This document shows positions 10,223 through 12,160 of a DNA stretch of 18,660 nt, one piece after another. The DNA is from a virus (Duplodnaviria > Heunggongvirae > Uroviricota > Caudoviricetes), in IMG/VR virus record IMGVR_UViG_2648501500_000009, one strand, 5' to 3'. Under the pieces are notes generated by a model. That model saw nothing but the letters and a program-made list of their open reading frames with translations, was not told where the DNA came from and did not search any database. The position numbers and the translations under genes are program-made. Position 1 is the first letter of the stretch. The number at the start of each line of letters is the position of its first letter.

Positions 10223-12160
10223 TCAGCCACCGGACGCAGTTCCGTAGTTCACACCGGTGATCACCGCCACTGCCGCGGTACGGCGACGACGCCAGTTGAT
10301 CCAGCGCTCCGCACGGATGGCCACGCTGCCGGTCTGAAACATGGAAACCAGCTCCACCGGTGACGGTGTGCTGCTGTCGCTGGTCGGTTCAGACTGCATC
10401 TCCAGTGACGCTTCACGGGACATATCCACCGCCACACCGCCGTCATCAGCCAGATAAATATCCGGTGCATTCACCAGTACCAGCTGGTCACCCACATACT
10501 GGGAGACAATCACCGGCAGCCCATGGAAGGTCCCGCCCAGCAAGGTCATGTCCGGATATTCCTTCTGCCCCAGCGCATTTTTACGCATGGACAGCGCCAG
10601 GGCATTCGTGCTGGACATCAGCCAGACCGCACCGGTGGGCTGCAGATTTGCCGTCACAAACTGGCCAAACGCGGCCTCGGCATCCGCATCCGGGTTACCG
10701 GTTGATGCCGTGCCCTTCACATCATGGGTGATGGACGCCGGGGAGACATCCGCCACCGCCGCTTTTTTCGGGTCCACAAAGTCTGTATCCAGACGCGCCA
10801 CCACCGCTTCCGCCAGCGCATTACGGACCAGTGCATCAGCAGCCGGACTGGAAAAACGGATCAATTCTTCCGTCAGTACCGCAATGGCCGACACTTTCGC
10901 ATGACTGAAGGTGATGGATTCAAAATCAAACTTCGTCAGGGGTCTGGCCTTACCCTCACCCACCCAGCCGGCAGCACCGCCGGACACCTGGGCGTGCACA
11001 CGGATATTGAACGGCACCTGACGAAGTGCAGGGATCCCGCCCTGACCAAATCGCCCGATAATGGTCTGCGGACGCAGGTAATCAATAAAGTCCTGTGCGT
11101 ATTCCTGATATTCAGACAGGCTGCCTGCCCACTGCGGATCCGTGGTGGTCCCCGCGCCCACTGCCGATTTCAGGACATGATGCAGACGACTGTCATCCGG
11201 ATACTGACGACGGGCCACTTCCAGGGCTTCAGAGCGGACACCTTTAGCCGCGGCCAGTGATTTGGCAAAGCGGGCGAAACCAATCCCCTTCTCCAGTTTC
11301 TGCTCAACACGGATCACCGGCGCTGAAGCCACCGTGGCCACATTCCCGTTACCGGCCTGTTTCACCGGCTGTGCCGTGGCGGCCTTACTGGTTTCCAGTT
11401 CACGCAGACGCTTCAGGTGCGCATCCACCTGACGGATTTCCGCTGCGGTGTTGTCGTAGTGCTCTTCCTCTTCCACATCCAGTGTGCGGCCTTCCTCTGC
11501 GGCTTTGTTCATGATCTCCTCAAGGGAGGCTGCCAGCGCCGCACGCTTGTTTTCAAAACTTTTAATCTGTTCACCAGTATTCATTGCTGACTTTTCCTTA
11601 TGAAAAGAGGTTATTGACTGTGCCGAAGCGCCGGCAGAAGATGCGATTTTCACCACCGGTTTCCGGTTGCCGGACGCGGCAGAAAACGGGCGGTCGAAAT
11701 ATTTAATGGTCCGGATGGTGCATTCCGCATTCGCGGGCACGGTGACGGCAGACACCTCCATCAGCTCCCAGCGCAGAAAATGCAGTCCGCCTCCGTCCAG
11801 ATAAGTGTATTCATGGGGCCGGAAGCCCACAGAAAGCCCCCTGACCAGCCCGGTCTTAATGGCAGCCCAGGCCTCATCCAGCCGGGCTGCCATCTGGGAG
11901 GGCATCCCCGGCTCCGGCTTCACCAGCATTGCCGTGATTTCCAGCCCTTCCCTGACCCGACGCACCGTACACTGGCCTACAGGGCGGGAATGGTCATGCT
12001 GCCAGAGAAACGGGATCGTACTGCCAAACTCCGCCCCCTCCGGCTCCAGGATGTCACCATCCCGATCCGGAGAAGGCGTTGACGCAATCCCGGTGATCAC
12101 CCGTTCATCCTCACTGAAGGATTTCACCGTCAGCAGGGAACAGGCCCGTTTAAGAGTCAC
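10223..12160 (-). CDS. Fused prohead protease - scaffold (delta) domain - major capsid protein, HK97 family (645 aa, GTG start)
   Basis: N-terminus GIASTPSPDRDGDILEPEGAEF...FLWQHDHSRPVGQ resembles HK97-type prohead protease; central charged coiled coil (EEIMNKAAEEGRTLDVEEEEHYDN...LKRLRELE); C-terminus VDMSREASLE...ELVSMFQTGSVAIRAERW resembles the HK97 MCP C-terminal region. Strong RBS AGGAGG before GTG at 12160. Confidence 0.8.
   Translation of the reverse strand: MTLKRACSLLTVKSFSEDERVITGIASTPSPDRDGDILEPEGAEFGSTIPFLWQHDHSRPVGQCTVRRVREGLEITAMLVKPEPGMPSQMAARLDEAWAAIKTGLVRGLSVGFRPHEYTYLDGGGLHFLRWELMEVSAVTVPANAECTIRTIKYFDRPFSAASGNRKPVVKIASSAGASAQSITSFHKEKSAMNTGEQIKSFENKRAALAASLEEIMNKAAEEGRTLDVEEEEHYDNTAAEIRQVDAHLKRLRELETSKAATAQPVKQAGNGNVATVASAPVIRVEQKLEKGIGFARFAKSLAAAKGVRSEALEVARRQYPDDSRLHHVLKSAVGAGTTTDPQWAGSLSEYQEYAQDFIDYLRPQTIIGRFGQGGIPALRQVPFNIRVHAQVSGGAAGWVGEGKARPLTKFDFESITFSHAKVSAIAVLTEELIRFSSPAADALVRNALAEAVVARLDTDFVDPKKAAVADVSPASITHDVKGTASTGNPDADAEAAFGQFVTANLQPTGAVWLMSSTNALALSMRKNALGQKEYPDMTLLGGTFHGLPVIVSQYVGDQLVLVNAPDIYLADDGGVAVDMSREASLEMQSEPTSDSSTPSPVELVSMFQTGSVAIRAERWINWRRRRTAAVAVITGVNYGTASGG

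Follow-up and report, generated by a model that had tools for sequence, protein, structure and literature searches.

A fused prohead protease-capsid gene with a conserved candidate internal start in the head module of Escherichia coli prophages and Shiga toxin phages

In a stretch of 18,660 nucleotides from a tailed phage (Caudoviricetes; IMG/VR record IMGVR_UViG_2648501500_000009; the whole stretch is hereafter the window), a single reading frame seems to hold the protease, the scaffold and the capsid protein of the phage head, and it lies ahead of the portal gene. Is such a gene real, what would it produce, and how is the head module that contains it joined to the tail genes that follow? We report that the fusion is genuine and functional-looking, and that it is not new, as it belongs to a head module that is very common in E. 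coli prophages and has long been annotated. The sole possible addition is a conserved internal start signal, which may let the capsid part be made alone.

All genes of the window lie on the minus strand, in the order lysis cassette (P21-type holin, lysozyme and Rz), HNH endonuclease, terS, terL, fused ORF, orf73, portal, a 353-aa protein, four connector genes and tail genes (Table 1).

Table 1. Features of the window, listed in the direction of transcription
Feature	Position	Strand	Basis or remark
HNH endonuclease, upstream of terS	14737..15102	-	Pfam HNH
Terminase small subunit (terS)	13882..14445	-	Pfam Terminase_2
Terminase large subunit (terL)	12224..13885	-	Pfam TerL_ATPase and TerL_nuclease
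Terminator-like hairpin with T-run, between terL and fused gene	12172..12199	-	Pattern scan
Shine-Dalgarno (SD) AGGAGG, 5 nt 5' of the long-ORF GTG	12166..12171	-	Sequence reading
Fused ORF: prohead protease, linker, delta/scaffold and HK97-fold major capsid protein	10223..12160	-	645 aa, 1938 nt
Long-ORF start codon GTG	12160-12158	-	
S78 (HK97 gp4-type) serine protease domain, aa 18-153	11702..12109	-	
His55 codon	11996-11998	-	
Ser110 codon	11831-11833	-	
Linker, aa 154-192, variable and disordered	11585..11701	-	pLDDT <50, indels, low conservation
SD-like motif AAGGA within linker	11595-11599	-	10-nt spacer to ATG
In-frame ATG (Met193), candidate internal start	11582..11584	-	Predicted 453-aa delta-capsid product
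Delta/scaffold helical hairpin, aa 195-262	11375..11578	-	AF2 helices 195-223 and 229-262, pLDDT ~97
HK97-fold capsid region, aa 293-645	10226..11284	-	
Long-ORF stop codon	10225-10223	-	
orf73, conserved 73-aa ORF between fused gene and portal	9957..10178	-	PHROG 829; Enterobacterales loci
Portal protein, 454 aa	8647..10011	-	Pfam Phage_portal, E 2e-79
G5 run near portal 3' end	8662..8666	-	G6 alleles fuse portal to next ORF (859-861 aa)
353-aa protein, 54-aa tandem repeats, conserved C-terminal domain	7589..8650	-	
gp6-like head-tail adaptor (c1), last head-module gene	7266..7592	-	Pfam Phage_connect_1
c2-c4: HK97-like head closure, gp10-like and tail completion proteins	6121..7255	-	Pfam and HK97 identity
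Tail shaft, HK97-like: V with C-terminal Ig domain, G, T, tape measure H	1336..6124	-	
Lambda-like tail tip: M, L, first 49 aa of K	1..1343	-	

Within the one ORF, two Pfam families were matched above their gathering cut-offs: Peptidase_S78 (PF04586) at aa 48-151 (32.7 bits against a cut-off of 21) and Phage_capsid (PF05065) at aa 386-635 (55.7 bits against 24.2). The N-terminal part aligns with HK97 gp4 at 29% identity, and its His55 and Ser110 fall on gp4 His65 and Ser114, the catalytic residues of gp4. An AlphaFold2 (AF2) model built on 118 diverse sequences (pLDDT 84) showed four clear regions, among them a disordered linker at aa 154-189, with a protease domain of herpesvirus-assemblin-like fold (pLDDT ~95) and a capsid region of HK97 fold; a run on only 16 close homologues reached a mean pLDDT of 41 and was discarded. 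Searching PDB chains by sequence gave weak capsid matches alone (E 0.004), and fold searches were required. Pfam and AF2 thus bear out the preliminary description of this locus, which had read the 645-aa ORF as a prohead protease of HK97 type fused to a coiled-coil delta segment and a capsid domain. Part of the capsid region (aa 340-374) aligns weakly to residues 107-141 of HK97 gp5, and pLDDT dips at aa 335-348; on these two grounds we place the N-terminus of the mature capsid protein, with low confidence, at about aa 335-340.

Could the fusion be an artefact or a pseudogene, in which a sequencing error or a decay mutation has lost the stop between two genes? The same ORF is present in 1252 of the 5426 complete E. 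coli genomes and is uninterrupted, at a query coverage of at least 80%, in 1249 of the 5426, with up to 7 copies per genome; among the E. coli matches listed it is annotated as an intact CDS. One cluster at 90% identity has 9916 members of 645 aa. Homologues of 644-648 aa and 73-77% identity occur in Salmonella, Enterobacter, Klebsiella, Serratia, Kosakonia and Pantoea, and fused homologues extend to alpha- and betaproteobacteria. A search of representatives at 50% identity returned 12143 clusters at E <=0.001 and 1174 at <=1e-30, and the best 150 representative clusters comprise 142 fused and 6 capsid-only proteins. The window itself is 99-99.9% identical to E. coli prophages and to long-tailed phages converting for Stx1a, Stx2c and Stx2a, and the intact 1938-nt ORF is carried by phi330, a plaque-forming siphophage with an icosahedral head (PMC12502783). 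Loci from other species are fused in 11 of 13 cases, while in two (L016 and L019) protease and capsid protein are encoded by separate genes, with the order unchanged. These unfused relatives are what can be said for a lost stop. An ORF unbroken in 1249 E. coli genomes and in a 9916-member cluster excludes a sequencing frameshift; no stop or frameshift splitting the genes, of the kind that would undo the preliminary description, was seen in those genomes. With 142 of the best 150 clusters fused and the phi330 ORF intact, conservation has already refuted the idea of an artefact or pseudogene, which we regard as scarcely credible. A further reading takes the N-terminal domain as a degenerate, inactive protease that serves as extra scaffold, with processing left to a host enzyme or to another enzyme of the phage. 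Its catalytic His is kept in all 142 fused representatives and its Ser in 141 of them, and such near invariance, together with a score above the S78 gathering threshold and the modelled assemblin fold, makes this reading very improbable. No other prohead protease gene was found within the head module, a result that is neutral for the question.

The place of the fused gene upstream of the portal, which the preliminary description had called an inversion of the usual order, was confirmed (terL, fused ORF, orf73 and portal follow one another on the minus strand) and proved to be widely shared. The 13 loci from other species, which were found via protein alignment, include Reyranella, Chelatococcus, Pelagibacterium, a Burkholderiaceae MAG, Snodgrassella and Candidimonas (31-46% identity). 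The protease-capsid gene precedes the portal in 12 of them, that is, in all those with the portal within the retrieved DNA, and terL lies upstream of it in 11, that is, wherever terL was detected. Fused homologues keep the order terS-terL-fusion-portal throughout, and in most of the other-species loci the portal is followed by a homologue of the 353-aa protein and then by a gp6-like adaptor. Since capsid-before-portal is common to such distant loci, it is an old, fixed trait of this head-module lineage and not a local inversion. The T-run and SD upstream of the fused gene are also kept in other genera, where AGGAGG stands before an ATG and not a GTG start. The terminator-like hairpin between terL and the fused gene is not significant, as the pattern scan found such sites no more numerous than in shuffled sequence.

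Inside the fused ORF, the linker carries an SD-like motif shortly before Met193. In 16 Enterobacterales sequences Met193-Asn194 is invariant, while the linker before it is variable and has indels. Among the 142 diverse fused representatives the column of Met193 holds Met in 109 and Val in 10, a Met lies no more than 4 residues from the aligned position in 124 (against a background of 19%) and none lies within 4 residues in 18, and dipeptides that can encode an SD (EG, KG or GG) occur at -7 to -2 in 43% (against 7.4%), enrichment figures that overstate independence since the sequences are phylogenetically related. We read 12 fused loci in DNA (the window and 11 others, including alpha- and betaproteobacteria), and all 12 have AAGGA, AAGGG or AAGGAGG 6-10 nt 5' of an in-frame start; in L014 that start is a GTG, preceded by AAGGAGG. 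An SD-like motif precedes 17% of the in-frame ATGs of these ORFs overall, the candidate internal starts counted in. In unfused relatives (L016, L019 and the six capsid-only representatives) the capsid protein begins at query residues 193-197. The conserved SD and start suggest that two products are nested in the gene, one long with protease and capsid protein and one short with the capsid part. The literature searched, whose coverage ended short of the main HK97 protease study, held no description of an internal start in S78-HK97 capsid fusions, and given that scope priority for the idea is not claimable.

We consider it probable that the fused ORF encodes a head-assembly polyprotein, ordered from N- to C-terminus as protease, flexible linker, delta-type scaffold hairpin and capsid protein, and that it yields two in-frame products that co-assemble, with the protease as a passenger that later removes itself. 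Directly supported in this proposal are the domain identities, the catalytic residues, the internal start signal, the gene order and the intact phi330 ORF. The first product would be the full-length 645-aa protein from the GTG, and the second a 453-aa delta-capsid protein from the internal SD and the ATG of Met193. Both forms would co-assemble into the prohead via their identical capsid and delta parts, and the protease, covalently attached to the long form, would thereby be carried inside the shell. Once the prohead is assembled, this protease would cut away itself, the linker and the delta segments, leaving a mature capsid protein of ~305-310 aa. Use of the internal start, co-assembly, cleavage positions and stoichiometry are thus what we infer. 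With slightly less assurance, we lean towards seeing here a nested gene pair in which the protease would travel on some of the shell subunits and two competing starts would set the ratio of protease to capsid protein.

Some observations speak against two products: ribosomes on the long frame could block access to the internal site, in the window the SD-like motif is just AAGGA, with a rather long spacer of 10 nt, and 18 of the 142 fused representatives lack a Met near the aligned position. It may be instead that only the full-length 645-aa polyprotein is made, so that every subunit bears a protease and cleaves in cis or in trans after assembly, the internal SD and ATG being a functionless remnant inherited from the start of a former capsid gene. 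The long ORF does begin behind a strong SD (AGGAGG), its start codon in other genera is ATG, and the fusion is stable across >140 clusters at 50% identity, which means that a 1:1 ratio, if made, is tolerated; by a rough volume estimate, the protease and delta contents would occupy ~30% of the prohead interior if every subunit carried the protease. Yet the fusion is old (identity across proteobacterial classes is 31-50%), and the linker has diverged freely, while the SD and start codon persist in 12 of 12 loci; a functionless remnant should have decayed amid such divergence. We therefore think it unlikely that the polyprotein is the only product and the internal signal a relic, and retain the two in-frame products as our working proposal.

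Downstream of the fused gene, the junction between the portal and the 353-aa ORF, whose ATG overlaps the portal stop (ATGA), provides a separate observation. By alignment, five versus six G residues near the portal 3' end (G5 and G6) is the sole difference there. RefSeq joins the portal and the 353-aa ORF into one 'frameshifted' portal pseudogene in window-like copies and has an intact protein of 859-861 aa elsewhere. Exact probes counted G5 at 708 sites in 367 complete E. coli genomes and G6 at 1338 sites in 752, and both alleles can share one genome. In other genera CAGAGGAT replaces the G-run and two genes are kept, with the ATGA overlap; a programmed -1 frameshift that joins the portal to the 353-aa ORF as a conserved mechanism was rejected on this ground, and the same pattern makes the two-gene state the ancestral one. 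The flanks of one G5 copy match those of G6 copies without a difference over 1050 nt, which leaves recurrence or an assembly error as the source of the change. Phage records with G6 number 10, including 2851, phi330 and YYZ-2008; all 49 with G5 carry the name of Stx-converting phages, and their sequences seem to stem from prophages. The window portal might be a pseudogene, as PGAP annotates it. Phages 2851 and phi330, both isolated as particles, carry G6 in their records, and other genera have the ancestral split form. The phi330 assembly has several split genes and so cannot settle the matter. That the fusion is tolerated suggests a role at the portal for the 353-aa protein. It matches PHROG 1289 and 2271, both named just 'portal protein', names that appear to derive from fused portal copies, and our searches gave no structural or family assignment beyond these and a sub-threshold CBM_5_12 match.

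How, then, is this head module joined to a tail? We compared the window with lambda and HK97 by tblastn (E 1e-3) and by blastn. Identity to HK97 in tblastn is 66% for V, 63% for G, 61% for T and 58% for H, and for c2-c4 in turn it is 43% (head closure), 75% (gp10-like) and 48% (tail completion); the counterparts of c2-c4, V, G, T and H are HK97 gp7-gp16. At that threshold V, G, T and c2-c4 had no lambda match by tblastn, and H matched lambda over its C-terminal third only (27%). Conversely, L, M and the first 49 aa of K are 76%, 45% and 86% identical to lambda, against 35% (L) and 34% (M) to HK97. At the DNA level, window 1-1021 is 79% identical to lambda 13410-14424, window 1517-6957 matches HK97 at 65-77%, and 6958-18660 had no blastn match to either phage. 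Identity to HK97 falls to 23-29% for terL, portal and protease, and BLAST found no significant match to it for the capsid part. The gp6-like adaptor stays with the head module in loci with unrelated tails, and the later connector genes do not. The mosaic accordingly has three parts as judged from these alignments: a distinct head module that ends with the gp6-like adaptor, connector and tail shaft genes resembling those of HK97, and a tail tip resembling that of lambda, with junctions at ~7255-7266 and at ~1021-1517 (3' end of H and M). An independent report on phi330 likewise confines lambda similarity to M, L, K, I and J (PMC12502783).

The two-part picture from which we started, a lambda-type tail joined to an HK97 head, does not survive this comparison as it stood. 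The tail proved lambda-like in M, L and K, but V, G, T and H resemble HK97 (H with a Pfam Phage_HK97_TLTM match), and the K gene, although present and lambda-like, is merely a 49-aa fragment at the window edge. Calling the packaging and head genes HK97-like holds at the level of families but not of close sequence identity. The expected junction inside the connector block (6121-7592) was indeed located there, between c1 and c2 (~7255-7266). HK97 too has a lambda-like tail tip, and such a join is therefore ordinary for lambdoid phages; the mosaic is ordinary lambdoid modularity.

Long-tailed Shiga-toxin phages form their particles with this head module, and roughly one complete E. coli genome in four contains it, frequently more than once; its correct annotation therefore matters. 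The 2025 record of phi330 still labels the fused gene 'hypothetical protein', and RefSeq labels it just 'phage major capsid protein', next to a portal called a frameshifted pseudogene. Should the internal start prove to be in use, it would be a simple natural way for a capsid to enclose a limited dose of its own maturation protease, and cargo might be loaded into HK97-type shells by the same means. Of the points raised here, the internal start signal alone merits an experiment.

Among known systems, the gene has been named before: GenBank AP012538 and AP012539 call it 'major head protein/prohead protease', and JGI names relatives 'HK97 family phage major capsid protein/HK97 family phage prohead protease'. 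PHROG 617 spans aa 1-639 of the fused protein, and PHROG 4523 ('major head and protease protein') matches weakly by profile (E 6e-11, aa 93-267). Pankowvirus (Stx2a_WGPS6, phage 2851 and phi330) has the same gene, 95-99.9% identical, of equal length and with the same flanking genes; what differs in these records is not the fused gene but the G5/G6 portal allele and the repeat copy number of the gene after it. HK97 gp4 and gp5 share with it the protease family, the aligned catalytic His and Ser, the capsid fold and the helical delta region, and the HNH-terS-terL packaging genes occur there too. In HK97, however, protease and capsid protein are two genes placed after the portal, whereas the window has one ORF before it, and the sequences are as remote as noted above. 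The 'major capsid and protease fusion protein' of actinobacteriophages, a name used in Arthrobacter clusters AN, AU and AW and in Microbacterium cluster EE, is a routinely annotated fusion of the same kind, but its hosts and lineage differ.

[quoted passage not shown] 2010 (PMC12315714, PMC8538268). The window protease is of the S78 family and its capsid protein of the HK97 gp5 Pfam family. In Gifsy-2, by contrast, the protease is ClpP-like and the capsid protein lambda-E-like, with a trimeric decoration protein. Pfam matched no ClpP or S49 domain in the fused ORF, which places it outside the Gifsy-2 type (a ClpP/S49-type protease fused to a lambda-E-type capsid protein), and the two fusions are analogous, not homologous. 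A CBASS preprint was set aside as a precedent, as it describes a protease-scaffold fusion and not a capsid fusion. The closest parallels to the nested products proposed here are in-frame assembly genes. In lambda C/Nu3 (both annotated in NC_001416) a long protease product and a shorter product share one frame and a common C-terminus, and the nested herpesvirus assembly genes UL26/UL26.5 likewise give a long protease-bearing and a shorter product. In both, the shared part is scaffold, whereas in the window it is the capsid protein itself and the nested product is a prediction; the feature that would mark a nested gene of the C/Nu3 type, a conserved internal ribosome-binding site with an in-frame start, is present in all 12 loci.

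Near the 3' end of the portal gene lies a run of G residues, and the reading of the portal depends on its length. With five Gs (G5), the allele in the window, the portal is 454 aa long and its TGA stop shares bases with the start codon (ATG) of the ORF that follows, whereas with six (G6) the two ORFs are joined into a 'portal' of 859-861 aa; in complete E. coli genomes we counted 708 G5 and 1338 G6 sites, and the flanks of one G5 copy were identical to those of G6 copies. In RefSeq the G5 copies are marked as pseudogenes with a frameshift, but the split arrangement of the portal is also found in other genera, where the G-run is absent.

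The 353-aa protein encoded by this next ORF is named 'portal protein' in databases, a label that seems to stem from the fused portal copies. It contains tandem repeats with a unit of 54 aa (162 nt), the copy number of which differs among prophages; its C-terminal domain is conserved and has a CBM_5_12-like motif that scores below threshold. Almost every related head module, those of alpha- and betaproteobacteria included, has a homologue after the portal.

Features of the window and their positions
Feature	Position	Strand	Remarks
T	4654-4935	-	61% identical to the frameshift extension of HK97 gp14
G	4959-5333	-	63% identical to HK97 gp13
V	5339-6124	-	listed ORF 261 aa, GTG start
353-aa protein ORF	7589-8650	-	tandem repeat at 8058-8434
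G5 run	8662-8666, within 8647-8680	-	close to the portal 3' end
73-aa ORF	9957-10178	-	conserved; between fused capsid gene and portal
Terminator-like GC hairpin with T-run	12172-12199	-	in the 63 nt that separate terL from the fused gene
DUF3950 ORF	15144-15344	+	between lysis cassette and packaging genes
TonB_C-domain ORF	15476-15817		between lysis cassette and packaging genes

Upstream of the portal, the 73-aa ORF shares 55 nt with the beginning of the portal gene as annotated, matches PHROG 829 and is 51-56% identical to other Enterobacterales copies. Ahead of the fused protease-scaffold-capsid gene, a T-run followed by a Shine-Dalgarno sequence is kept in other genera. Across the whole scan, terminator-like sites were no more numerous than in shuffled sequence. 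Further upstream, in the 14737-15817 stretch, an HNH endonuclease gene lies directly upstream of terS.

The fused protease-capsid ORF is also intact (1726-3663) in the genome record of phi330, a plaque-forming Stx2a siphophage (PV189401), where the 2025 GenBank entry labels it 'hypothetical protein'. Several neighbouring genes, namely those for the portal, the gp10-like protein and the major tail protein, are split in this record, which suggests homopolymer errors in the assembly.

In the tail module, the listed V ORF probably extends too far at the 5' end; its HK97 match begins at aa 17, and RefSeq gives the major tail subunit of a near-identical prophage as 717 nt. The C-terminus of V carries an Ig-like domain (Pfam Ig_2 and I-set). 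By analogy with HK97, a putative -1 frameshift would be expected to join G and T.
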